From Catajapyx aquilonaris (lineage: Eukaryota): DNA of 64,000 nucleotides. How positions within the stretch are numbered: position 1 is the stretch's first letter; every line of letters begins with the position of its first letter. Below, in pieces: positions 10,321 through 57,314 of this stretch. The notes beneath the pieces are model-generated. The model made no database searches. It saw only the letters and a list, made by a program, of their open reading frames with translations, and was not told where the DNA came from. The translations under genes and the position numbers were made by a program. The stretch lies in NCBI GenBank assembly GCA_000934665.2, contig JYFJ02000399.1, positions 1 through 64,000 of the forward strand, given 5' to 3'.

Positions 10321-11223
10321 CTATATATAGACAGTCATTCACGGCAATCGGGATGATTCGAAGAGACGCCTCGAGGAAAGCAGATATCAATCGTCGAATT
10401 TAGAGGACACTGTCTTGCCAAGTCTATCCATTACGACGAGTAGACTACCAAACATGTAAGTGTTCAACAGATTAGATAAGTGCCGGAAAGTTAGCTGACC
10501 AAATCTTCAGTAAACGCGAGGGTATGTGAAAATTGTGATTGTTTAAAATCTCAGTTGCTTTAACACTTTAAAAAAGTCATCAAAATGTAACAGTACGAGC
10601 TTTTAATTGACGTGATATATGCCTCTTATTACGTGGGTATTACCCCCTTTGCGAAGTCTGCTCTCATCTTGCATCATATTCAAATATATTTCTTGGAGTA
10701 ATTTCTGTGGACTTGTGGAATCATTACCCCATTCAGGGAAAGCACCCTGTTGATAATTGAGGAATAAACAACTGTAATAATATCGTGCGTGCATGTCCAT
10801 TATTTCCACACCTTTCTTATAAATAGACACAGCATTGGTTTTTGTGATATTTTTACTATGCAAAAATTCCCCGAGTAGATTAACCTTGTGTAAGGAATGT
10901 CCACTAATTGTTATGCAGGATAGCGCACAACATAAGATTTTACCTATACACCTAGTGAAAACGTGATTGTTTGCTTAGCTATATCAGTTTAGAGTGGAAC
11001 AATCATACAGTAATTGAATTTTCAAAGGGTTTCGGGTATGAACAATGAAACTCTTATTTTCTAATAGTGACGTCCACATTATTTTTCCTTGTACTTCCAG
11101 GTAACACGTATGTGCCTCTGAAGTTCACGGAAGCTGCATTATTAGTGTAGGATTACATTAGAGCACGTTATACACATACTGAGCAGACGAGTATTTCACA
11201 GAGGCTAGGATAATTAGAGAGAC
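10321..11223 (+). promoter_or_regulatory. TATA-like box, 5'UTR exon and 5'UTR intron of the Cys-rich peptide gene
   Basis: CTATATATAG at 10321, donor AT|GTAAGT at 10456, polypyrimidine acceptor GTACTTCCAG ending at 11100. A kB-like GGGAATTTTT (minus strand) lies at 10862-10871. Confidence 0.5.
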
Positions 11224-11565
11224 ATGAATTCAACCCTGACTGTGATGATCTTGCTGGCAGGGCTTACTGTCCTGGTAAGTATGCCTACTCAAAATGCATG
11301 GCACATTATTAATATGAACACTGGTAACTTCTCACTTCAGGACATGACAGGAGCTCAGATACGGTGCGGATATCATGTCTGCGTGGGTATTGTAAGTATT
11401 ATGTAACAATAGTCAAATAGTGAATTAACTCCCAAAATTTTGTCTCCTTAGTCTCGATGCTGCTTGCAGTTCGGACAGATGCGATGTTGCGATGGCCTCC
11501 GTCGAGAGACTTTCAGCGGATCATCGTCTGATGTCATGAACGACCAACAAGGAGTCGTTAAGTGA
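11224..11565 (+). CDS. Small secreted cysteine-rich peptide precursor, 71 aa (C-x4-C-x5-CC-x7-CC)
   Basis: Exons 11224-11274, 11341-11391, 11452-11565, with strong GTAAGT donors, YAG acceptors and phase 0/0. Protein: MNSTLTVMILLAGLTVLDMTGA-QIRCGYHVCVGISRCCLQFGQMRCCDGL-RR-ETFSGSSSDVMNDQQGVVK. Hydrophobic signal peptide; AATAAA at 11685. Confidence 0.85.
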
Positions 11566-12426
11566 CATGCATCATTTGCCAAAATTAAGACTGTCTATTA
11601 AGGCGAAACTTATATGGCGCTTTTAGGACAAACGGCACTGTTGTGGAGGGAAGGTATGGGTGAATCGAATGTAATGTTCATGTTAATAAAATGTGTGTGG
11701 GTCTATTGAAAAATGCAATGGGTAAAAAACGAGCATTTGTTGAAAACATTGTTGGTGACAATGAACAACAAACTTTACCGGCTCCTTTAAAAAATTCTGC
11801 AGGTAGTGTAAGTGGTAAGTGACTCTTAAATAAGTTAGCACTGGGAGGAAAACAACAGCATCAAGGTTTGGATCTAACTTCCTCAAAAGAATCATGCAAA
11901 CCTATTATAAAATTACATTTTATTAAAAAAGAGTACAAACAGCTGCGATGTGAGTATAAAGGTCTACGTAAATGTTTCATAACACTCACGCGAAAAGTGG
12001 CATGCTATCATGGCAATTTCTGTCAAAAATACTGTAACGCTATAGTACAAATATCAACTGCGTAGACAAGAAGTACAGCACAGTAAAATTCATAGAGGGT
12101 TGAAACATTAGCTCATATTGGAGGAAATTTTTTTTTTTTGAAAAATACGACTATAATCTGTTCTACGTCAAGAATATGGCCACCCTATTCACTCTAAACA
12201 TTCACTTTAAATGATTTCTCTTGGAATCTGGACTGGTCATTGCACAACCCTTGATAATTAATTATTAAGTCAATAGTTACTCACTAACATTGCCATCGCA
12301 ATTCGCAAAACTGCTCTTCATGAATATATTACAATATTTCGATGTACAAACATGCTTTTCACACTGAGATCAATATCAGTCGTTGTCTTCCAGTCTTTGT
12401 AAAATAGAAATTACTGGTTGGAGGAA

Positions 12427-15400
12427 TCACCTTTTACCAGGAATGGGACACAATTTTCTTCTTTCATCGCCACCAATCCTCATGGTCAGAGTTTTTGACT
12501 TTGAAAAGCAGGCGCAACACGAAGGGAGGCGAAATGAGTCAGTCATGGCCGCCCCATCGTCTCCCAATGCCAACAGTTTTCTGTATATGAATTTTTGTCT
12601 GCAAACTGTCTCGATACCTGCTGGTGCACGGTCATTGAACGAACACGGGCTGCCATCATTTCTGAATAACAATAATTAATTAGAAAATCCAAATACTAAA
12701 CGAGCGGTGGAAAAACTTACAGGCATTTTTCAATCCTAATTCCCTGGACATAATCTCCCTGGTTGACAACATAAAGCCAGTTGTCCTCTTTGTTTTGGGC
12801 CACCTTTGGATATATGGTGTGCTCCATGGCTCCGCACAAGGGCACCTCGTTAACGTAATCGGTCCGTTCAGCTACAATATCTGGCCTCTGCAAATGAAAT
12901 TATCATAGATCATATGCATAGGTCTATAATATTATCATCAACACATCAGTCATCATATCTAAACTACTATCATGGCATATGAAAGTTTTGCAGCAATAAA
13001 GAAAGTTAATTTGTTAAATAAGTTACACCAAAAAAGTGACACCAAAGTTCTTGGCATTAACTGCGATGAAATACACTATTAACAAAAATTAAACATATTA
13101 TTAAATCTGAACTTTGCAGCATCTAAAATTAATTCAAACTTGTCACCATATGCTCTTTATATTAGTTCAACACTGTATAAACAATAAATTATAGAGATGT
13201 CTCTTCGAAAGCATAATAAATCAGTTGAAATATAGCATTTAAACCCATTTTAATTACAGTTTCCAGCACATGCTCTAATGAGGCAGATTTGCAACAAATA
13301 TGGGTCACATTCACCATGACTTGATAAGGCAAAACTTACCGCTATTGTCAAATTATCGTCGCCATACACCTCCTGGAATTTTTGCGGGCTTATTACTTTC
13401 TTCAAAATATGACTAAGATATTCCCTGAAACGATAACACCAAGTCAGATTATTTCCAATAACAACCTCATAAAAATCATAGAGTAATTGACCCTTGAAGG
13501 GCCGTATGACTGTTCTCTATCCAGCAATATTTTTTTGCCAATTTATACATGAAAGGCAAATATTTTGAATTGTTGCTTATTGTAATAATTTTTCCCATGG
13601 CGTTATAAAGACACATACGACGGATAAGAAGGGTCTTCCTCGCAAAAGTCCTTCCCGTTGGTACAAACCGGTCTGCATTCGTCCATCCTTGGCTTCAGAA
13701 GCCTGGACTCGATCGGAACAGAATCAACCTTGTCGTCATCAGGAAATGTTATTATGGAATCCTCGCTTTCGGAAGTCCTCATCATGCGAGCACTTTGTGA
13801 GCCTCTGTCATCACGTAATCTAGGCTTTAAAGAGAGAAACAAGACGTAACCACCCTTCGCACGTGTGTAAGATAATTACAGTGTTCATGTAACCCCCCGT
13901 TACAACACGTACCTCTTGGCTGGTCAAATCCTTCCTTAGTCTAGCCGGAACACTCATAGAAACGGGCAGGCACAGGACACAACACACCTGCAATAAATGG
14001 CATATTAAAATGTTAATAAAATTTAATTGCATGCGAATAGTTGCTACTAAAAATAACAGTCGAGTGTACTGAATGTACGCAGCACAAAAATTATGGACAA
14101 ATTTACATAATATTTCATCTGCAATTCAATGATTTCATGTAGGTACAAATTATTCCATTCAGGTACAATCCGTCGCCATATTGTCTGAATAATAAAATTA
14201 TGTATTTTCCCACAGTTATTAGAAATAATATTTTTCCCACCTGATTGATCAATGTCGCCATGTTAGAACAAAAATCAGTTGTGAGTGTAAAAGGAGGACT
14301 AGTCGATAAGGCAAAAAGTTACGTGAGGGGGATCGCTCGTCTAATTGCTTTGACCATGAAACCACAAGAAAGCGATGACGTCCATTATTTACAAGGCTGA
14401 GAAAATTGATTGTCCAATAATACTTTCAAGTTCGCAGCAACACTTACGCATTTTGATAGTGGGCTAACTTCCTAGATTTTGAAACCGAGCATTGCACTCA
14501 AGTTCGGCAACCTGTATTTTTTTAAAGGATTAATAATTCAAGGATTTTTGAATGGTACCGGGGGTGGCAGAAGGTCATCGAGTATTTTGCTGCGGTCAAA
14601 CCTTTTCAAGCCTTGGTATTTGCAAGAGTTTTGTATGGCATGCAATATTAGAATAAGAGACTCATCGATCTCTATTCTGTGACCCCCAAACTATACTAAT
14701 ATGGAGTTATGCAATCTGAGCTGGTCTATTGATTGGATTTGATGCATGAAGTACATACAGTAGTGTAAACACTTCTTAGAATTTTACTATACAACCTGTA
14801 GTACTGGCTCTTGTTGAATATTCAATCGAGGTTTTATGGCCTATAAAGTATTGCCGAGTGACATTCGAAAGGGAAGCGAAGCTGAGTTTTTACAAAGAGA
14901 CTAAGTGGTGCAGTATATAAAGTCAAACAAGCCTGATAAAGCAGCCGGTTGCACCATAGCAGGTGTAGCTGGTACTGTTTATGACATTTTGGGTCATTAT
15001 TTTCAACAAGTTGCAACAATTAAGGCGGCAACTGAAATACTACCCGAAGATCTAAACCCAATTTTATTAATGCATGTGTATTATTATGTTTTATCAATCA
15101 TTAGGCTATTATTATTTATCAGTTTCTTAGCTGCCTTAGTTAGTTGACTAATTTTAGAGTAAAAAAGTTGCGATGCATTAATTAATTGCGAGTCCGCAGC
15201 AGTATGTTTAAATACGTGTATGACGCGAGCTGTGTCGGAATCAATTGTTCGCGGGAAAGTGCACTCCTACAATCACAGTAGTTGAAATATTTTGGAAGTG
15301 TTCAGCCATGATTTTTTTTTACCCTTCCTTGAACCAGGTAGCAACACGTGGGAAAGTCCGGAATCAACCCAAATAAATCATCCTCTAAAAATATTGCACG

Positions 15401-18205: not shown

Positions 18206-21200
18206 TTACTCATCTCCAGGAACCGGACACAATCTTCTAGGCGAAAATCCTGCCCTTCGATTTTCAACCAAGAACTTTGATTTGACGAAACAAGCGCAGC
18301 ATGACGGAAGTCTGAACGAGTCTGTGATAGTGTTTCCTTCAGCATTCAGTGCCAAAAGTTTACGGTATATAAACTTCTGTCTGCAAACTGTCTTGAGACC
18401 CGCTGGAGCTCCGTCGTTGAACTGACATGGGCTGCCATCATTCCTTGAAGATAAGAGTAGTTTCACTTGTACTGTTTTTGTGACTAAAAATTAATTACGA
18501 AAATACTTACAAGCATTTTTCCAGTCTTATGCCCTGGATGTATTCACCTTGATTCACCACAAAAAGCCAGTTGTCTTCCTTGTTCTTAGCTACCTTTGGG
18601 TATATTGTGTGCTCTAATGTTCCGCATAATGATATTTCATCCACGTAGTCGATGCGCTCTCCTACTTTGTCAGCAGTCTGCAAAATATTACATCATCATC
18701 ATTTAGCATAAAATAAGGTAAAATCCTTGTAAAAGCAACCCGTCATAACGTAATATCTCTGTGCATAATGTGATATTGTTTAGACTTTAAAACTCGCTGA
18801 TCCTACTTACAACATAAGTGAAGTTGTCGTCTCCATAAACTTCTCTGAACTCTCTAGGGCTGAATTTCTTCAGCACTCGGGTCAGGTACTCACTGCAATA
18901 GGAAACAAACAATGAGCCTCAAATCATCATGTGTCTTCACCCTTGTAAATGAACGTACGATGGATAGGCCTCGTCCTGCTCGCAGAATTCGGCTCCTTTG
19001 CCACAAACAGGTCCGCATTCGTCTGCCTTGGGTGTCAAGTACCTGGGTACTATCGGAAGTACATCTCCTTGCTCGTCGTCTGGGAATGTAATTGACGAGT
19101 CTTCGTTTTCCTCTTCTGGTCTCCCACCCAGGTGACGACTGGAAGGTTCTCCGCCTCGGAAACGAAGAGGCTGGAATAATATTATACGCCTTAAAATCAT
19201 GTCAGCAATTAAACTCAGTTTGACTAACCTCGATATCGTAATCGTGGTAACTGTGGTAATGTCCTCTTCTGCGCGATCCATCATTATTCCAGTCTGTCGA
19301 GTCCCTTTTGACTCTGTCAGTAGGGACGCTCTTGGCTACTGACACACACACGATCAGAGTGACGAATATCTGTAAAACAACGTTCAGGTTGGTACAACAT
19401 ACTGTATAATTAAGTTACATACCAACAGTATAGGCTACGGTATTTTTTAGCTTAGAATAATTCGTTCAAGGCCTGCATTTTGTGAGCCCATTCACACAAT
19501 TTCCACCTTTTCCACAAGAAAGTTGAAAAATCTCATCTTAACAATTCAAAAAATGAGTTTATAAAGTTCACTAGGGAAGATTAAATTAAAATAGAAATTA
19601 AAATGTAGCATAAGACAATTAGCGTGACACTTCGACTTACCGACTACTGAAGGTCACTATAGTTTAACAAAAAAATTTGCATTCTACAAAATGCATTTAT
19701 TACAATTTGCAACTCATATTACTTGTATCATGCAGTGTAGCTTCTAATACTACTGAACGTAGCAGCTTGCTAATTATTAACTTATCAATTAAGCCTACTT
19801 ATTCATTAATTCATCAATTAATGCTTATTTATTAATGATTGGTTACAGTTTATTAGTTAATTATTTGTTGAAGTTTATTAATTAAACTTTTAATGGGGTT
19901 AATGTGAAAAAAGCTGCAATACTGAAACAATAATTATTATTGACTGACTCTAATTAAAGTCGATAACTGCATGCTGTTTCTGCAAGGTTAATGAAACATT
20001 TTAAGAATCTGCTAATCTAATCGGCTGCAGTCAACAAAAGGAAGGAAGATAAAAAGTTTGCGGAAAACCGGTCGGAAGCAAATTGGCAGCGTATCTGTCA
20101 ATGAGACGGAAAGTGTTTTTTTTTTGGTCGAGCCCGGTTCCGTTCCGCATATAAAACCCTAACATCCTCTCAACCTACATATCGCATTAAAAAAGTGAAA
20201 ACGAATTAATATTTTTGCACCCTGATTTTAATTTCTATGCCGCCCCGGAAGAGTAGTGTTCAAATGATAATTATGATATGAGTTATTATTCAACAAGTTA
20301 CGCAACTATCAGACTATGTTATTTTATTTTATTTATTTATTGACCATGGAGGAATGCTCAAAAATGATCATTTCCCTTGAGACACACCAATATTGTTTCC
20401 CAGTGATATTTTTGGACAGCACTGACCTGCTGCATTCCACAGTCTTCAGAAGCGCAAGACACCGTGGCGGGAAGCACAGACACACAAGACACACCGCCTG
20501 AGGATTACCGTACTTGAGCCTCCCTCTGGGCTCTCAGAAGATGCGACGTGACCCACAGAAGGTCAGCCGCGGTCAGCCGGCAGTGGCTAATGAAAGGGTT
20601 CTTATTGCCATCCTTTAGGCTTCCGTTATCGCAATACCTGAAGGGTATGAATGTGGCTCGCATTCTGATTCCGTCCATTCTTTCCTAGTTGACCCCCGAG
20701 TACGTGACATCGTATACGGAAGGTTTTTGTTCCTGAATATTGCAGCATTGTAAATCATATAAAGTCTTGCCTTGGTGACCTTCACTTGCAACGTGAGGTT
20801 GAGCAGCCTCAATTAATAACAACAACTCATAATAGCTGCGGCACATACGTTGATCACGTGATTAATGTAATTGGTTTAGAGCTGCAAACAACTGAGAGAA
20901 CAACAGTCTTTCTGAAGTAAGCCATACCAACTATATACTATTGACAACCTTACATAATAAATCAAAAAGTTTGTATGTCCGGGCTACCTAACCCACTTCC
21001 GGACTACTGAGAGTACTGAAACTTGGCACACTGATAGTGCCTCTGAGGGAAAAGTCCGAGAACGACACTTTTGTTGAGTCTAAATTACTACAATTTAGGA
21101 AATTTCCGGTCTGCAGTAATCAGCAATAATCCTGGCTTAGCCTACTTTACCATGGAAACAGGCTGTGCGAAGAACACCCTTCGCTGCTAGTCCTGTACTA

Positions 21201-41334: not shown

Positions 41335-42449
41335 ATTACACACAAGTCGCATTATAGCAATTTACATTAGTTCACATATAAATAATTAAATTATTATTAA
41401 TGTTAATTCCACTCTGCCATTCAAGTCTACATATCGCGCATATTTTCCAGTCTAAACTATGCACGTGCAATTGTTCCAAGTGCGCTTCATAGCTCGAGGG
41501 GAAAATGAGTAAAGCCACGTGCAGAAGCAATATGGACAGGAAAAAGTGGTATACTCTTCAAAACCCGTTATGTCCTTGTCAGGAATGTCCACTTTTAATT
41601 TTTTTTAACGCCCTTACCCTACATTTTGAAGTTGTCATTTTAATTAGGGGGAAAAAAAGAACCGAACTCAAGACAGGTTTCACTCTTTGCCAACCGGTCC
41701 TTGGTTGTGAAAATACAAATTGTCACATGCGGTTTGAATGTCAAGGCTAAAAATAATACTTATTCTTCTTGCGGCTATTATGCGGGTTGAAAATCGTAGG
41801 TGGCAAAAAGAAGAGCCTGGTGACCCAGTTCGTCATCACTTTCTTGGGAGGTTGTTGGCAGGAGAGAGAGGCCTTCTTCGATTCAACAATTCACAGCAGG
41901 CCATCTTTTGAGAAGCGCATCCATATTTACGTTTGTCATGGTTTCGAAGGGGGGTCCCCCAAAATGTGGCATGTGGTTGTTTTTTTTTTGCGTTACAATT
42001 GGGGTCAAGTGCATTGCCCATTAGTAAGTTGGAGCAGGTAGGACGTAAACATGCAACTGCGTGATTGTCAACATGGTTCCGGATTGGTGGAGAAATCATG
42101 TGCTTATCATGGATCTTCATCTCAGTCACAAAATAGAGACCGACTTTCCCTTACAACAGAGTTGGCACCGAAGGATAATGACACACGACTCTTTATTTAT
42201 TTTTTTGTTAACGGGGCATCCTTGACCCAGAGAAAATTAACGGGTGGTTTATGGCCTACCCGACTGATGAAGAACAATTCGACGAAACATTATCACCTTG
42301 CGGTTTGCTTGTACTTTCAACCACTTGGGGGGTTGTGAATACCAATCGGAAAACCACTTTCACCCCCGTAGATGTGACCGGAAGGGGTTATAGGAAGTGA
42401 CATGATCTAATCTAGCGGAACTTTCGCTTCTTTATTTTTTTCCTTATAG

Positions 42450-45400
42450 ATGCCACCAGCACGCGTGGGCTTGTTCCTACTGCTGCTGGCCCTTTCCGAA
42501 GTCTCCTCGAGTCACAGGCGCCAGAGGAGAGAGCCACCAAGTCACGGGGGAGGAAAGGGCGGCACCTTCACGCAGTCGCTGTCCTACGAGGTACCAGGGT
42601 CGTCCTACGGGGCGCCGTCGTCTTCGTACGGAGCGCCATCATCATCATACGGAGCACCGTCATCTTCATATGGCCCGCCTTCGTCGTCATATGGGGCGCC
42701 CTCCACTTCATACGGACCGCCATCGTCATCTTATGGCGTTCCGGACGATTCATACGGTCCGCCCAAAGTAAGTTGTGTAAAGTCCGTAACAGGGAGGATG
42801 GCGCTAACACTATGGGCGCTGTCAGTAGCGCATGCGTATTGACGTCACTTTTATGCGCATGTGTGAGACGTCTTAATTGGCCAATGGCGCTCTCACTTTC
42901 ACGCATGCGTATTGACGTCACAATTACTGCGCATGCGTGCGACGTCACTGACTCTCTTATTGGCTCGTGACATCACTGTCATGTATGCGCATGCGTAGTT
43001 CTCAAGTGGAATCCTACCATCACTAACTATGGCGGGCGATGGGCACTAACTCTAACCTCAATAATGGGTCTCAATTTGACGCATGGTTCGTTATTTTTAG
43101 AAGTACAAAAAAAAGCCGTCAACGTCGTACGGGCCTCCGTCTGACTCCTACGGTGCACCGGACACTTACGGGCCCCCCAAGGTAAAAAATAGGCCACTCA
43201 TCGAGGGGGTAGTAACTGTGTAAATCTGGGCATAAAATCCTTTTGGGAATCTTATGAATCCGATACACATTAAAATGGTACGTTGTTACCCCCTCGACTC
43301 TCATGGAGTTTCTGCCCCTCGCCCGCTGTAGCGCTGAGGTATCGGTACAATAAGTTGACCTCCAAATAGTTACTTCAGTGCAACTTGGCGCCACCTGCTC
43401 CCATTTATTGTAGGAGTAGTTATTCTTCAGTAAATCTTCTGAAGTGGGGTAAATAGGAGGACAATTTGCTTGATGCTTACAGAGTAAAGGGCACAAACTT
43501 CCTTCCGCATTCCCCGAATTGCAGTCTAACTATGATTTAATAGTACAAAGGTGGTGGTAGCGGAGGTGGAGGCTACGACTATGGCCACAGCAGCGGCGGA
43601 GGCGACTATGGACACGACGACGACAAAGGATTGGACATCCTGGGGGCCAAGAAGGCCCTGAAAGGAGCGGTGATGAAAGCGCTCAAATCCGTGAAAGGTC
43701 ACTTCAAGAAGCTGAAAGGAAAGCTGATGAAGGCCAAGGGAACCATCTTGGCCAAGAAGGGAGAAGCCGTCTACAAGCTGGGAGAACTCTTGCTGAAGAA
43801 AGGGAAGAAGTTGAAGTCCAAGGCTAAGGGCAAGGGCAAGGGCAAGGGCGGAGGCGGAGGTGGACACAGCGGAAGCGGCAGTGGAGGCGGAGGATACGAC
43901 TACAAGCCTAAGAAAGGTTAGCATTTGTCACGTGAGTCTTACAGTTCGATTAAGTGTTCAAATATGTAACATGTTTTTTATTAAGAAAATGGGTAGGAAG
44001 TAATACAAAAATCAGCTTTGTTACGATGTCCGTTCAGTGATCGTAAAACGCAGTAATGTCGCTTGTTTGAAAGGTACAGTATGTGGACGCCAAACCGACT
44101 GGCAGGCTTGTAGTTCGAGACTTGTATCGCACTGTAAAGTTTTAAGTATCACTTTGTAGATGTGCGTAAGCCAAGTTGTGTCACTTTCAATCTTTTGCAC
44201 TGTAGCACAGTAGACGTAAGTTTCTACTGTACCGCACTCTGTCCGCACATTGATAGCAATACCATGTACTGTGGGATATTGGGCTTAATGTTGATTGTTT
44301 AAATCTAATGCTGTCCTCAGCAAAAACGCCGCATCTGCAACGTCGCACTTGCAGATACGGCCTTTTTGCTAAGCACACCACCAGTACATCATTTCTTACG
44401 CAACCCGATCTCAGTTGCCACGTAGCATCATTGCACATTTGCATGCACTCCCTACTACTCTCTGATTCCAGGATACTCTGGGTACATAGTAATCAAAGCC
44501 GTAAAGACCGGCGGATACGGCCCACCCAGCACCTCGTACGGACCTCCGTCTACTTCATACGGTCCGCCGTCCACTTCTTACGGCCCGCCGTCCTCCTCTT
44601 ACGGAGCACCTTCCGGCGGCGGTAGCGGCGGCGGATACGGCGCTCCTTCTTCCTTCTCCTCTTCTGGCTCCGGACCGTCCAGCAGCTATGGCGCTCCGTC
44701 TCAAAGCTACGGTGCTCCGTCTCAAAGCTACGGTTCTCCATCTTTCTCCTCACCTTCAGAGCCAGCCAGCGGTTACGGCGCTCCGGCCGAAACTTACGGC
44801 GCCCCCTCTCAGAGTTACGGCGCTCCTTCCCAGACTTATGGCACGCCGTCGCAGACCTATGGGACGCCTTCTTCGCAATACACGGGCCCGTCCCAGACGT
44901 ACGGAGAGCCAGCCCCAAGCTACGGCCCGCCACCGTCGTCGAGTTATGGCCCACCGTCCGACACTTACGGAACACCGTCCCAAAGTTACGGCGCCCCAAG
45001 CGGTGGTGGTGGTGGTAGTGGAGGCGGCGGCGGCGGCGGATTCTCTTCATCAGGGGGTGGTGGCAGCTCGTACGGTGCTCCATCCGATAGCTACGGTGCA
45101 CCGTCTGGAAAGTCCAAGGGTGTCGTTACAGCAGCGGTAACAGCGCATCATACGCAGCACAAGAAGGGCAAGTCGTTTTCCCCTTCCTCATTCTCCGGAA
45201 TCCAGTTTGACTCCATCGTACCGGCAGTTAACGTGTACTCTGAGACTCTGACACAACAGCAGCCTTCTGCGTACGAGGACGATCTGAAAGGGTCGTACTC
45301 GTCGCACAACTCGGTCGAGGCTGAGCTGCCTGGCGGTGCGGCCGTTTTGGGCAACACGCCCGCCATTTTGAGCTCTTCCCCGACCGCGACAGCCATTTTG

Positions 45401-45628
45401 GATGGCACGACGCATCAGGGTAGCCAAGGGCCTGCGGACGGCTTTTCCCTGTATGTACAAACGTCGGACCCAGGACAACCACACCGAGACGCAACGACAC
45501 CTTCCTCCCCGACATTTGAAGTCTCGCCAGCCATCCTGGCACACGAGTTCCAGGAATCGACAGTTCTGCGCACCAGTGCTCAACCCCCATATGACAGTCA
45601 CCAGACCTCGTCAACCCCATCCCGTTAG
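42450..45628 (+). CDS. Secreted SYGAP/SYGPP-repeat structural (cuticle/ECM-type) protein with a Lys-rich helical insert, 642 aa
   Basis: Exons 42450-42767, 43101-43181, 43544-43916, 44472-45628, phases 0,0,1, 1929 nt open. Signal peptide, RRQRR convertase site, many S(S/Q/T)YG(A/P/T)P repeats, Gly runs. No R&R chitin-binding or Tweedle domain recognised. Confidence 0.9.
42828..42996. repeat. Intronic array of GCGCATGCGT + (T)GACGTC(A) units
   Basis: Five (G/A)CGCATG(C/T)GT motifs, four followed by a GACGTC core, interspersed with ATTGG/CCAAT. Confidence 0.75.
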
Positions 45629-48600
45629 AGTTGCCAAGACGTTTTTTTTTTTGTTGAATTTTTATTTAAAAACAAAAAAATGAAAAGAAAAAATGATAGA
45701 AACGCAGACGTTTTTGTTATTACCAGACTGACAATTGTGTTGGAGAGTGTATACTGTGCCCCCTATAATATTCCTCCTGTTTCCAACATTCTATTTACTG
45801 TTTCAGGTTAACGTCTTCCAGAAGTGAAGAATGTTCGTGCCAATGGATCAACGGCTCCCAATGTTTCAGGAAGACACATAGGGAGGTGTATAAAATAATG
45901 GGAAGGGTTGACCATTCGCATTTCTTTACAAATTTTTTTTTGGCACCATCTTGTCATAAATTAGCGCAAAATGCTCAAAATCAGTATTAGTGCGGAATTG
46001 TTCTTTTCTGTTCACTTGTCTTTACCAGACCGGCACAGTACCAAAGAATGTCTCTCTAATTGAAAGTAATGCACCTTCTTGTGGCCATCGCAGTCCTCAT
46101 GTTGGACTATACCAGAAAATATGGAAAAAAAAAACCCAGCCATTAACGACATGGACAATGTACTGTACAAAGGTGGAGGGATTGAAGTCAAGAGCAAGAT
46201 GTGGGGTCCCCTCATTATTGTATGCTACAATTGACTATTATGACCGAAAAAGCACTCCATTTTTATAGTGATTGTTTTTTTTTGCAGCAAGCTCAAATTC
46301 ACAGTCCGCCCTATTTTATTTTCAAATTATTGGAATCCATGAGGCGTCCTATGAATTTGAATTTTAAAAATTGTTTTTAGACGGGGTCAGATGACAAGCA
46401 AAATTTTGTGTTTTCATTTGTTTGTCATCTGTCCCTCTCTCAATAAACATATGTTTATGCAAAAAAACTGCCTATTTATTTCTGACGTTTGTAGAAAAAA
46501 ATGAGGGCATTTATTAATAGAAGAACAACACGTGTCCTGGACGCCATTTTTTTGGATGGGAGAGATATCGGTCGCGGATATCAGGACCGGATTGAAAGGA
46601 GATGACGAGGCGAGAATGTGGACCGGAATAGTAGGCACCTCAGAGAAAGCCCAAGAAAGGTACTGCATCTGTGCCTATGAGTTCTTAGAAGAAAAAGAAA
46701 GAAAAAAGAATTGGACCCCACAGCAAGATACGTTTGTCGGACGGAAGTGAAAGTTTAGTGGCCACGAGCCCTTTCTCATAGCTTCATTAGAAGGGTGATA
46801 GATTGGGGTTTTGTACATACACCCATATTTGACACTATTTTGTATGTCTTCAAGTAGGTGGTTGAACCCTTTGCTCGTAAAGAATAGTATGCAATCACAT
46901 TTGTTCGATCAACAAGAAATGTGGGTCGAGATACCCCGCGGAGCACAGTTTAAAATTGGCCATTTTGATTTTGAGAGATGGGTTAATTGAGGCGTCGGAT
47001 CCTTCACGATTGTTGTTCCAGGCTGCCCTTCACGTCTGTAAATTTATAATGAAAAAAATTGGGTTTGTAGAGGCCGTCGTGCCACTTTGTCGATGCCATC
47101 GATCAAGGGCTCTTTTGTGCTGGGATCAAGTTCAATATCATATGCAGGTATAGCCTGGAACAATGGGGGTATTCCTTAATTAGAATCCGAATGTACCGTT
47201 TTGTAGCATGGAACGATGCGCATATGAAGAAGCAACAATCTGACTTTCCATTTCAGAGTACGACAATTTTTGTTTTCGGATGCTCCAGGTCGTGAATTTT
47301 CACGCGACGGTGCCAGTAATCACGTAAATTACGACTTGAATCACTCGTCACGCTTCTTGGTTCCCCCCGCTACTTTTTATGGTTTTTATTGTCGGGACAT
47401 GTGATTAACAAAGCACGAACATCATGGCATGAAAGTTGACAATTTGGGTACAGAAATGAAAATTTATTTCACGCCCCAAGAATATAAAAAAATAACGACA
47501 CGAGCCCCACGTTGCCTGACATTGTGAAAAATTTATTAAACATTGAATTGAATTGAATATCAACACTTTCATTGACTTTCATGCCATTACATGACTGAAA
47601 TTAAATATTATTACTTGCTACTACTCTTGGTATACAGGTGACATAATTTCAATAGGTTAGCATTAGAATAAATAATTTGCTATTTATTGCCAGTCAGCTG
47701 GTATACTTGGTATGAAACTTTCCAAAGAGCAATTTATTATTGTTATCCTGTTATTGTTATCACAGGATTATGCTATTGTTTTAAGTGCTTTGAACTGGTA
47801 CTGGGACCATGAACAGCAAGTGACACTAATTATCGCGTTGGAAGAGTAGAAATCAGCTTTTCGGACAAGATTCTAATCTCATTCACAGGATGCGCTTCAA
47901 ATTTGTATTCACTCCGAGCCTGGCTATATCTTAAAAACACAGCCGGTTTTTCCTGAGCGACAATTAATTATTTCAGTAGGCCAACCGGATAAGGGTATCA
48001 GCCTAACAAGAAATTGAGCGTAACTCTTGCCACCCCTTCCTAATCATTCTAGGCTCAACAGACAAAAGCACTTGGGATAATCCCATCAGCTGCAACAATC
48101 TGGTTCCGTCACGTTGAACACACATCTTTTCTCACAGTTCATATCGGAGTCAGTGACGTAACTCGTAACATACAAAAATCCTTCATGCTTGAACTACAGT
48201 AAAAATTTTCTCAAGAGATGAAACCTGGTGGCCAACAGATGTCGACACGATTCTGACTCATTCAAAAAGGTGAGATCACGGCGATGCAAACTCAAGCCGG
48301 AAGATGACGCTACGTTCTGGAACCAACAACTCAAGTTTTAATAATTCGGTGCAAAAAAAACCTTTAAAGAAAAAAGTTTACTACCACTGTGACAGCAGTA
48401 ATAAATTCCTGACCCCATCAGAAGTAATAACTTTTTGAAATATTAAGCAAGAAACCACTGGCAAATGACATGTTCCAAGTAAGTTATAACGTTCTAGTTA
48501 CGACCCATTAAGATGCTTATCAGTGGTTAAGATAATTTGATAATGCAACGCTTGTTATTACTAAAGTTTTATTGTCAACAGCGGGAAATATTTTAACATT

Positions 48601-55994: not shown

Positions 55995-56086
55995 GGATGG
56001 AATTTTAGTCCCACTGCTAGTTACTGCTAACTTAGTAGTACCACTGTTGGCACTGCTAAGTTAGCAGTGGGACGAAAATTCCGCCG
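55995..56086. mobile_element. Second copy of the palindromic MITE
   Basis: GGATGGAATTTTAGTCCCACTGCTA...TAGCAGTGGGACGAAAATTCCGCC, with the internal ACTGCTAACTTAG shared with 25996. Confidence 0.55.
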
Positions 56087-56136
56087 CTATAGTCATTAGT
56101 CAGTGTCATTTTTTTTCGAACTTGTGTTTGTTTCAG

Positions 56137-57314
56137 ATTGTGCTGCTTCTCTTATGCCTGACCTTGTCTGAATGGAGCTGTGCAGAGCCTCCGCGTCACC
56201 AGCACCATCACAAAGCACCTCCTAGGCAGCACACGGTGGTAGTCAAATTGGCCGGACCGAGCAAGATCTTCGGATGGGTAGGGGCCAGACATGCAAAAGC
56301 GCCGTACAAGATACCGAGGCCTTTCTTTCCCAAGTACTCGTACGCCCTGCCTAGTTACACCTCCTTCTACAAGGAGCATGGTCTGTACGGAAACTTCAAG
56401 GGAGTCAAAGGAAACAGCCTGATCGCTGTGGGTCCCAAGTACAAGTATTTTAAGCCCTCAATAGGCTACGAGGTTCCGTACTTCAGCAAAGATTTTGTGC
56501 CCCATTCGACTCACTACTACCCTGTTGAATCGTCCGGGTTCGGTAGCGGTAGTGGTTCAGGCCATGGAGATGTAGTGGCGTCAGTGGACGGAGGTCAGCT
56601 CCATAGCACATCTTCTGGACACGGCAGCTTCGGTGGAGTGTCCGGTGGCGGGTATGGGAGCTTCGGAGGCGTCTCTGGAGGTGGCGTGTCAGGAGGCGGC
56701 CATGGGAGCTTCGGTGGCGTCTCGTCAGGCGGTTCTTACGGCGGAGGAATCCACGTGGAGCAGCAAAAGATTGTTGAGTTTATGCCGTCGTTTGGACCCA
56801 TCGGAGGTGGACATGCACATGGCGATTCAGGTACTGTTGAAACTTATGCAAATGTCTCATATTGCATAACTTTCGCCAACAAAAGGGTAGGAATCCGCTA
56901 TTTACACTTTAAACTTGCAATACAGGTCCTGGTAGCGCCGTGTTTGGCTTGGCACCACCGCAGTCATCATACGGGGACCTCCTCCCGAGCTACTCCGAAC
57001 CGGAAGCCTTGGTCAGTAGGCATCCGACCGACACGACTCCTTCGCCCCCTCAGTACGTGGACATAAACGAGCTGCTGGGCAACCTTCCACAGAAGGACGA
57101 GAAGCTCAACATCATCCCAAGCGTGGAGCTCAAGTTCTCCTCCAGTACGCCTCCGACCTCCAGCAGCAGGGTCAGTGTCAAGGTCAGCACTTCTGAGAAG
57201 ACCAGCGAAACCGGACCTCACCACCATCATCCTCACAGAGGTGACATTCCTGTCCTGGAGAGGTCGGACCAAGTCGTGCGACCCAGAGTCAAGCCCGTGG
57301 GATACGTCTTGTGA
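56137..57314 (+). CDS. Secreted Gly/His/Tyr-rich low-complexity (cuticle-type) protein, ~360 aa; first coding exon uncertain
   Basis: Exons 56137-56830 and 56926-57314 (phase 1). Signal IVLLLLCLTLSEWSCA, GHGSFGGVSGG repeats, His tracts. Candidate phase-0 start mini-exons: ATG|GTGAGT at 51996-51998 or ATGCGACAA|GTAAGA at 51967-51975. TATATAA at 50890. Confidence 0.85.

Follow-up and report, generated by a model that had tools for sequence, protein, structure and literature searches.

What kind of gene is the small three-exon unit that lies next to a Spaetzle gene in the window (the whole 64,000-nucleotide stretch analysed here), and does its position say anything about its function? An earlier note had read it as a hidden precursor of a cationic three-disulfide effector peptide, with a cysteine framework recognised as no named arthropod family and with a link to a Toll-ligand locus. 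Here, we report that the window gene (W) is a real gene, that its framework is already known, and that it is one of five related, reduced granulin-like genes. Taking all lines of evidence together, we lean modestly towards reading W as a predicted secreted 71-aa precursor, its family as derived from a single-module granulin gene through the loss of cysteine pairs, and the products as likely cationic antimicrobials that an acidic tail holds inactive.

Gene structure and predicted product

The three-exon model proposed for W was borne out, with exons of 17, 17 and 37 codons plus a stop codon and two phase-0 GT-AG introns:

11224..11274, + strand: exon 1; 17 codons, encoding residues 1-17 of the predicted signal peptide, with a phase-0 donor at its end
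11275..11340, + strand: intron 1; 66 nt, GT-AG, phase 0, GTAAGT donor, without an in-frame stop
11341..11391, + strand: exon 2; 17 codons for the end of the signal peptide (x-x-T-G/E-A), Gln23 at 11356, and Cys1-x4-Cys2-x3
11392..11451, + strand: intron 2; 60 nt, GT-AG, phase 0, GTAAGT donor, two codons before the CC pair
11452..11565, + strand: exon 3; 37 codons and the stop, for x2-CC-x7-CC, RR at 11500-11505 and a 19-aa weakly acidic tail
11685..11690, + strand: AATAAA, candidate polyadenylation signal, 120 nt past the W stop

The 71-residue product carries cysteines at positions 26, 31, 37, 38, 46 and 47 (spacing 4,5,0,7,0), followed by RR at residues 51-52 and a 19-aa tail of net charge -2. 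The N-terminus fits a signal peptide of 22 aa, with a hydrophobic h-region and with T and A at -3 and -1 ahead of Gln23; together with the six cysteines, this supports the predicted secreted precursor with a three-disulfide layout. The residue between Gly and RR is Leu, and an amidation signal adjoining the dibasic site is absent. As the earlier note had observed, the framework departs from the patterns that it gave for insect defensin (C..CxxxC..C..CxC) and ICK (C-C-CC-C-C), since W has two CC pairs and no CxC. At the DNA level W is single-copy, with own-genome DNA and protein searches returning the query only and no second copy found in the 64-kb window. Spaetzle and cuticle-like genes mark the host as an arthropod; elsewhere in the window (42400-45700 and 56000-57300, + strand) lie secreted-looking Gly/Ser/Tyr/Pro-rich repeat open reading frames, which we take to be cuticle-protein-like.

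A half-granulin cysteine pattern and a five-gene family

That the framework belonged to no recognised family turned out otherwise: C-C-CC-CC corresponds to granulin's initial six cysteines, the half-granulin or paragranulin pattern (PMC4527844, PMC7463432), and the family to which W belongs traces to granulins of its own genome. A genome search with PF00396 gave 31 matches on 18 contigs, two small ones of which look like duplicates of others, and 22 of the 31 lie over the cut-off; the family came to light through this search, an exon like W exon 3 standing beside one match. Four paralogues of W were found, namely A, C and B on contig G000:C1185 (at 32.2, 28.8 and 24.7 kb, respectively) and D on G000:C2473, the last through a pattern matching the opening of exon 2.

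All four share with W the 17-codon signal exon, identical in length and phase, and the same intron positions. Common to all five genes are thus the signal exon, the two phase-0 introns, an exon 2 that opens with x-x-T-E/G-A and an exon 3 that opens with x2-CC-x7-CC, and it is because four paralogues have the same exon layout that the gene model of W is more than chance. In the signal region W is identical to its paralogues at 9-11 of 22 amino acids and 39-43 of 66 nucleotides (z 3.5-4.4, with 1-2 of 1000 segment-wise, Cys-fixed shuffles reaching the score). Three degenerate patterns, built tightly from known members and bounding close look-alikes only, each lead back to these five genes (5 among the 30 examined out of 34 matches, 5 of 14 and 5 of 20); for the 34-match pattern one further match was inspected and lacked the family exon, and three were left out. 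With loose patterns (331, 61 and 126 matches), the one family member among the 30 matches examined in each set was W itself.

Cysteine counts step down across the family (D 10, C 8, and 6 each in A, B and W), compared with 12 in the granulin module (C-C-CC-CC-CC-CC-C-C). With the second intron written as a stroke (/), the canonical genes of this genome read C-C-CC-CC-x4 / x2-CC-CC-C-C, D reads C-C-CC-x4 / x2-CC-CC-C-C, C reads C-C-CC-x2 / x2-CC-CC, and A, B and W read C-C-x3 / x2-CC-CC. The intron lies two codons before a CC pair in all five members, and D has the full 4/2 spacing. Exactly this offset and phase are found in 15 canonical granulin C-half exons, while a GT donor lies four codons after the second CC in 12 of 17 N-halves; the junction of the mammalian N-half and C-half is described as having the same intron position (PMC4527844).

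The strongest match to granulin comes from D, whose core scores 33.5 bits on a hidden Markov model (HMM) of 20 own-genome C-halves versus 14.1 for shuffles, with 0 of 300 Cys-fixed shuffles reaching it. In its exon 3, all six columns that never vary among 15 C-half exons are kept, identity to one of these exons is 50%, and the closing P-x4-C...C of the C-half is retained. A scores above shuffles on the N-half model (1 of 300 reach the score); B and C do not stand clearly above shuffles, their best results being reached by 9 and 34 of 300. The W core does not rise above Cys-fixed shuffles on either granulin model (53 and 271 of 300 reach its score), and because the W peptide alone does not beat shuffles, its link to granulin is an indirect one.

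The single-module 12-Cys granulins of the same genome (PF00396; on G000:C1185, C1576, C2452, C6969 and C8042, among others) resemble the family in having a signal exon, a cysteine exon and an exon opening xxCC, joined by phase-0 introns. They also cluster physically with A-C, which are flanked on C1185 by two such genes at 20-21 kb and four at 33-38.6 kb, and it is their C-half that D matches. They differ from the family in having 12 cysteines rather than 10, 8 or 6 and another signal exon, and the family exon 3 has a 7-residue loop. Overall, the family quite probably descends from granulin. W is neither a paragranulin by definition, being split by an intron, nor a full granulin, having six cysteines, but it likely combines granulin descent with a paragranulin-like fold.

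The granulins of this genome form an expanded family in their own right (on C1185, C1576, C2452, C3524, C6969, C8042, C567, C1373 and C1919), mostly of single-module secreted genes, although genes of one or three modules, the modules free of introns, are present as well; six of 18 granulin N-halves have a net charge of +4 to +7. One single-module gene (C1185, 19.6-20.4 kb, - strand) has in its exon 2, ahead of the module, an acidic stretch, R-D-R-R and a long run rich in Gly. Layouts that pair Gly-rich with Cys-rich parts are known from crustacean antimicrobial peptides.

Another group with this pattern was considered and rejected. Shisa-like six-Cys proteins (the WBP1/VOPP1 group) are single-pass proteins with a transmembrane segment after the C-C-CC-CC domain, whereas no transmembrane segment was found in the five members, in all of which the highest 19-residue hydropathy after the signal is at most 0.79.

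Charge layout and likely function

The cores of all family members are cationic (W +4, A +4, B +9, C +12, D +11; pI 9.0-11.5), and their tails hold 3 (W), 13 (A), 14 (B), 18 (C) and 12 (D) acidic residues. An N-terminal Gln and a Gly at loop position 4 are each present in four of five members. The cationic core with an acidic propiece, which had been read from W, does exist as a layout, but it is much clearer in A-D than in W itself, where the tail is acidic only weakly (net -2, three acidic residues) and the core falls to +2 once RR is removed, with 30% hydrophobic residues.

The same order of signal, Arg-rich disulfide-held core and anionic C-terminal piece, and in addition an N-terminal Gln, is found in the precursors of gomesin, tachyplesin and polyphemusin (the Gln in gomesin) as these are described in PMC11678162 and PMC6315362; the likeness is strong in A-D and weak in W. 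These chelicerate beta-hairpin precursors have four cysteines and an amidation site, whereas W has six cysteines and a Leu between Gly and RR, and the likeness is one of shared layout, with no sign of homology. For granulin-type peptides, antibacterial action is on record in horse eNAP-1, a rather weak antimicrobial (PMC3179947), and in tilapia GRN-41 (as cited in PMC8774982 and PMC7983300). Both are granulin-type like the family, for which such action is a prediction, and both differ in being vertebrate; GRN-41 arises by alternative splicing of Pgrn1 rather than from a dedicated reduced gene.

By analogy with these systems, the family products are most likely stored or secreted cationic defence peptides whose charge is masked by the tail until it is cut. 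For W, signal peptidase would cleave after Ala22, and Gln23 would then cyclise; on the way through the secretory pathway the cationic core would be masked by the acidic tail, which cleavage at basic residues (in W, RR) would then take off. The freed 28-aa peptide of ~3.1 kDa (3124.3 Da monoisotopic with pyroGlu and three disulfides) would bind anionic microbial surfaces. Its fold would be the mini-granulin beta-hairpin with disulfides I-III, II-V and IV-VI, the connectivity reported for zebrafish paragranulin (PMC7463432).

The main rival keeps the same family but takes its peptides, W above all, to be granulin-type signals, that is, a growth factor, a wound-healing factor or a haemocyte cytokine. 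Granulins act as growth factors, and truncated forms with three disulfides are reported to promote cell proliferation and wound healing (PMC7463432); the low charge of W after RR removal and its share of hydrophobic residues would also suit such a role. Nevertheless, the Arg-rich cores and long acidic tails of B, C and D fit charge masking better, loops are not kept among members, and natural zebrafish paragranulin is described as having no proliferation effect (PMC7463432). We consider a signalling role unlikely for the family as a whole, with W a better candidate for it than B, C or D.

A possible route from the granulin module

If the family did arise by reduction, a single-module granulin gene would have lost cysteine pairs to give the five genes, through deletions flanking the N-half/C-half intron, which itself was kept: exon 2 would have lost CC pairs, and exon 3 its final two cysteines. 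The six-Cys form would then combine the N-half's Cys1-2 with the pair of CC motifs from the C-half, arriving at the paragranulin pattern by another route; exon 2 of W would be what is left of a granulin N-half exon, cut short at the point where the first CC would start, and its exon 3 a truncated C-half exon. In line with this, the short-loop granulins adjoining B have the spacings C-x4-C-x3-CC and C-x2-C-x3-CC, and exon 2 of both W and B stops at such spacings just short of the CC. Among 18 own-genome N-halves, the one closest to W exon 2 is the short-loop granulin at C1185 19.9 kb (5 of 11 residues identical; 29 of 1000 shuffles reach it).

Not everything points the same way. The six-Cys genes could instead be true paragranulins, each a whole N-half with a gained intron, or a convergent Cys-rich family unrelated to granulin. 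The exon-3 loop has 7 residues, a length shared by 7 of 18 N-halves and by none of the 20 C-halves, 19 of which have 5; the B hairpin scores 62 on an N-half versus 31 on a C-half; W alone is not above shuffles; and the signal exons show no detectable likeness to granulin ones (scores of 7-30 against six neighbouring granulin genes versus 36-69 within the family). An origin of this kind would, however, require an intron gained at precisely the granulin N/C intron's phase and its offset of two codons, and it sits badly with D, which keeps CC-x4 / x2-CC and the C-half closing P-x4-C...C, and with the embedding of A-C among granulin genes. We hold it to be quite unlikely, and prefer reduction of a granulin module.

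Known mini-granulins illustrate both the likeness and the difference. Paragranulin and mini-granulin peptides (zebrafish progranulin-1 paragranulin, Ov-GRN12-35_3s; PMC7463432, PMC4527844) share with W secretion, the C-C-CC-CC pattern, a 5-residue second loop and a 7-8-residue hairpin loop. As described in PMC4527844, though, paragranulin is an N-half encoded by one exon inside a longer progranulin, whereas W is a stand-alone gene with its cysteines split 2 + 4 by intron 2, an exon 3 that is likely C-half, and an acidic tail. D has a counterpart in the lamprey short progranulin module g'', a 10-Cys module in which the first CC is likewise missing (PMC4527844 Table 2); this is an independent vertebrate case, and that source describes neither 8- or 6-Cys steps nor an acidic propiece.

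The Spaetzle neighbour and the upstream region

The tail-to-tail arrangement of W with Spaetzle stands (PF16077, E 6.8e-13 and 2.6e-6), the two stop codons being ~860 nt apart. The relevant features are:

12427..12893, - strand: Spaetzle 3' exons (cystine-knot domain), a neighbour and not part of the peptide gene
10322..10461, + strand: TATA-like run (10322-10329) and GTAAGT donor (10456), a candidate non-coding first exon
10862..10872, - strand: kB/Rel-like 11-mer ~352 nt upstream of the W ATG, absent from the paralogues' upstream 1 kb and of weak significance
11105..11110, + strand: CACGTA, aligned to the CACGTG E-box of the four paralogues; W has no TATA at the aligned place

Two tandem Spaetzle paralogues occupy the window (12427-14200 and 18206-19390, both - strand), 69% identical over 417 nt and each with a ~25-30 aa C-terminal extension that carries one extra Cys, and a third Spaetzle on the same contig (G000:C153:65743-66024, + strand) has an uninterrupted cystine-knot domain. 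Upstream of A-D, the CACGTG (92-102 nt before the ATG), a T/A-rich 5-mer and a TATA box ~27 nt downstream (64-75 nt before the ATG) are conserved, and the flanks have diverged. A MiT/TFE factor is a candidate for binding CACGTG.

The suggested link to a Toll-ligand locus found no support in a comparison with the paralogues. Spaetzle gave 17 matches on 8 contigs, which suggests ~10 Spaetzle-like genes, and none of the matches lies on C1185 or C2473, the contigs of A-D; nor is there a Rel-type site within 1 kb upstream of any of the four. Because the RR after the core, the kB-like site and the Spaetzle neighbour each occur in one of five genes, the Toll link is unsupported, and the location of W beside Spaetzle is probably positional. 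As for the kB-like site placed in a 5'UTR intron, the 11-mer exists, but its intronic place hangs on the putative upstream start site.

The view first taken of the locus, that W is an effector of the Toll pathway, linked in function to the Spaetzle next door and under the control of the kB-like site, retains the tail-to-tail position in its favour, as well as two differences from the paralogues that could mean a promoter switch: the Rel-type site 352 nt upstream of W, which they lack, and the missing E-box/TATA pair in W. Yet neighbourhood and site are found in a single member of the five, the Rel-type pattern occurs 8 times in the 64-kb window (overlaps counted; 0.125 per kb), and the strict Rel consensus is absent upstream of all five family genes. 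A switch to Toll control in W is possible; the Toll reading as a whole strikes us as improbable.

A more far-reaching scenario may be sketched tentatively, and we give it limited credence. In it, the granulin growth-factor module would have become an antimicrobial family in an arthropod lineage as rungs of the hairpin stack were lost stepwise (12, 10, 8, 6 Cys) about an intron that stayed in place, with an Arg-rich surface and a masking acidic tail gained and one E-box promoter shared; W would afterwards have moved beside Spaetzle, exchanged the E-box for kB and come under Toll control. A five-gene tree recovered no branching order, so the 12-10-8-6 order is unsupported.

Divergence of W

W is the most diverged copy of the family, with the longest branch in the five-gene tree (0.62 versus 0.21-0.34), and jointly the least cationic. 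We propose that it is a relocated, fast-diverged and less charged family copy. Its long branch, degraded proximal promoter and shortened tail could also be taken as marks of a recently silenced or decaying copy, but the frame is intact, as are the six cysteines, the canonical splice sites and a poly(A) signal. By a rough Jukes-Cantor estimate under neutrality, the chance that W would keep its ATG, four splice dinucleotides and six cysteines is p ~5e-7 at branch length 0.62 and p ~5e-4 at 0.3. Such retention argues for selection, if not against a recent silencing; we regard decay overall as very unlikely. Least probable of all, in our view, is a neuropeptide or venom-type ion-channel peptide with the mini-granulin fold, for although W has a pyroGlu-ready Gln and a dibasic site and cone-snail peptides use that fold (PMC11035057), the dibasic site is found in one of five members with no adjoining amidation signal, loops diverge fast, and those conotoxins belong to framework VI/VII rather than C-C-CC-CC.

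Relatives elsewhere and implications

Searches outside this genome, for which single exons served as queries, returned no convincing relative. Word-indexed protein searches gave none either for exon 1-intron 1-exon 2 of W read in frame or for D exon 3. The only phmmer match of W exon 3 among 1.84 billion proteins, a repeat protein of 1466 aa that has a type IX secretion signal domain, was judged to be chance. In the ESM Atlas, W exon 3 had one 0.75 match and D exon 3 had none, a metagenome scan with D exon 3 confirmed 0 of 601 pattern matches, and a PDB sequence search gave one unrelated match at E 0.18 and none for D exon 3. Pfam scans of single exons found no match for exon 3 of W or for six further family exons, among them exon 3 of A, B, C and D, a weak test in that only one of three canonical granulin exons was matched. 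Since a Spaetzle exon likewise drew no match at E 1e-10 from the protein collection, coverage of this lineage is poor and these blanks do not show novelty.

In the literature searched, which was largely without subscription journals, neither the 'CX4CX5CC' framework nor an arthropod family of reduced granulins was found; short forms from invertebrates may be among the entries of the S1 Table of PMC4527844. Matches to 'C-C-CC-CC' were, by title, longer cone-snail, plant or centipede frameworks, such as centipede SCUTX2 with its C-C-C-CC-CC.

The mini-granulin fold has so far come mostly from engineered truncations, a paragranulin without known function and a few conotoxins. If the proposed descent is correct, natural stand-alone genes with 10, 8 and 6 cysteines would allow the re-pairing of disulfides in a hairpin stack upon its shortening to be tested, and would also show whether granulins can yield dedicated antimicrobial peptides; at 23-45 residues, the family peptides are synthesisable. 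Moreover, Pfam and protein searches miss this family exon by exon, and similar families may therefore hide in other arthropod genomes.
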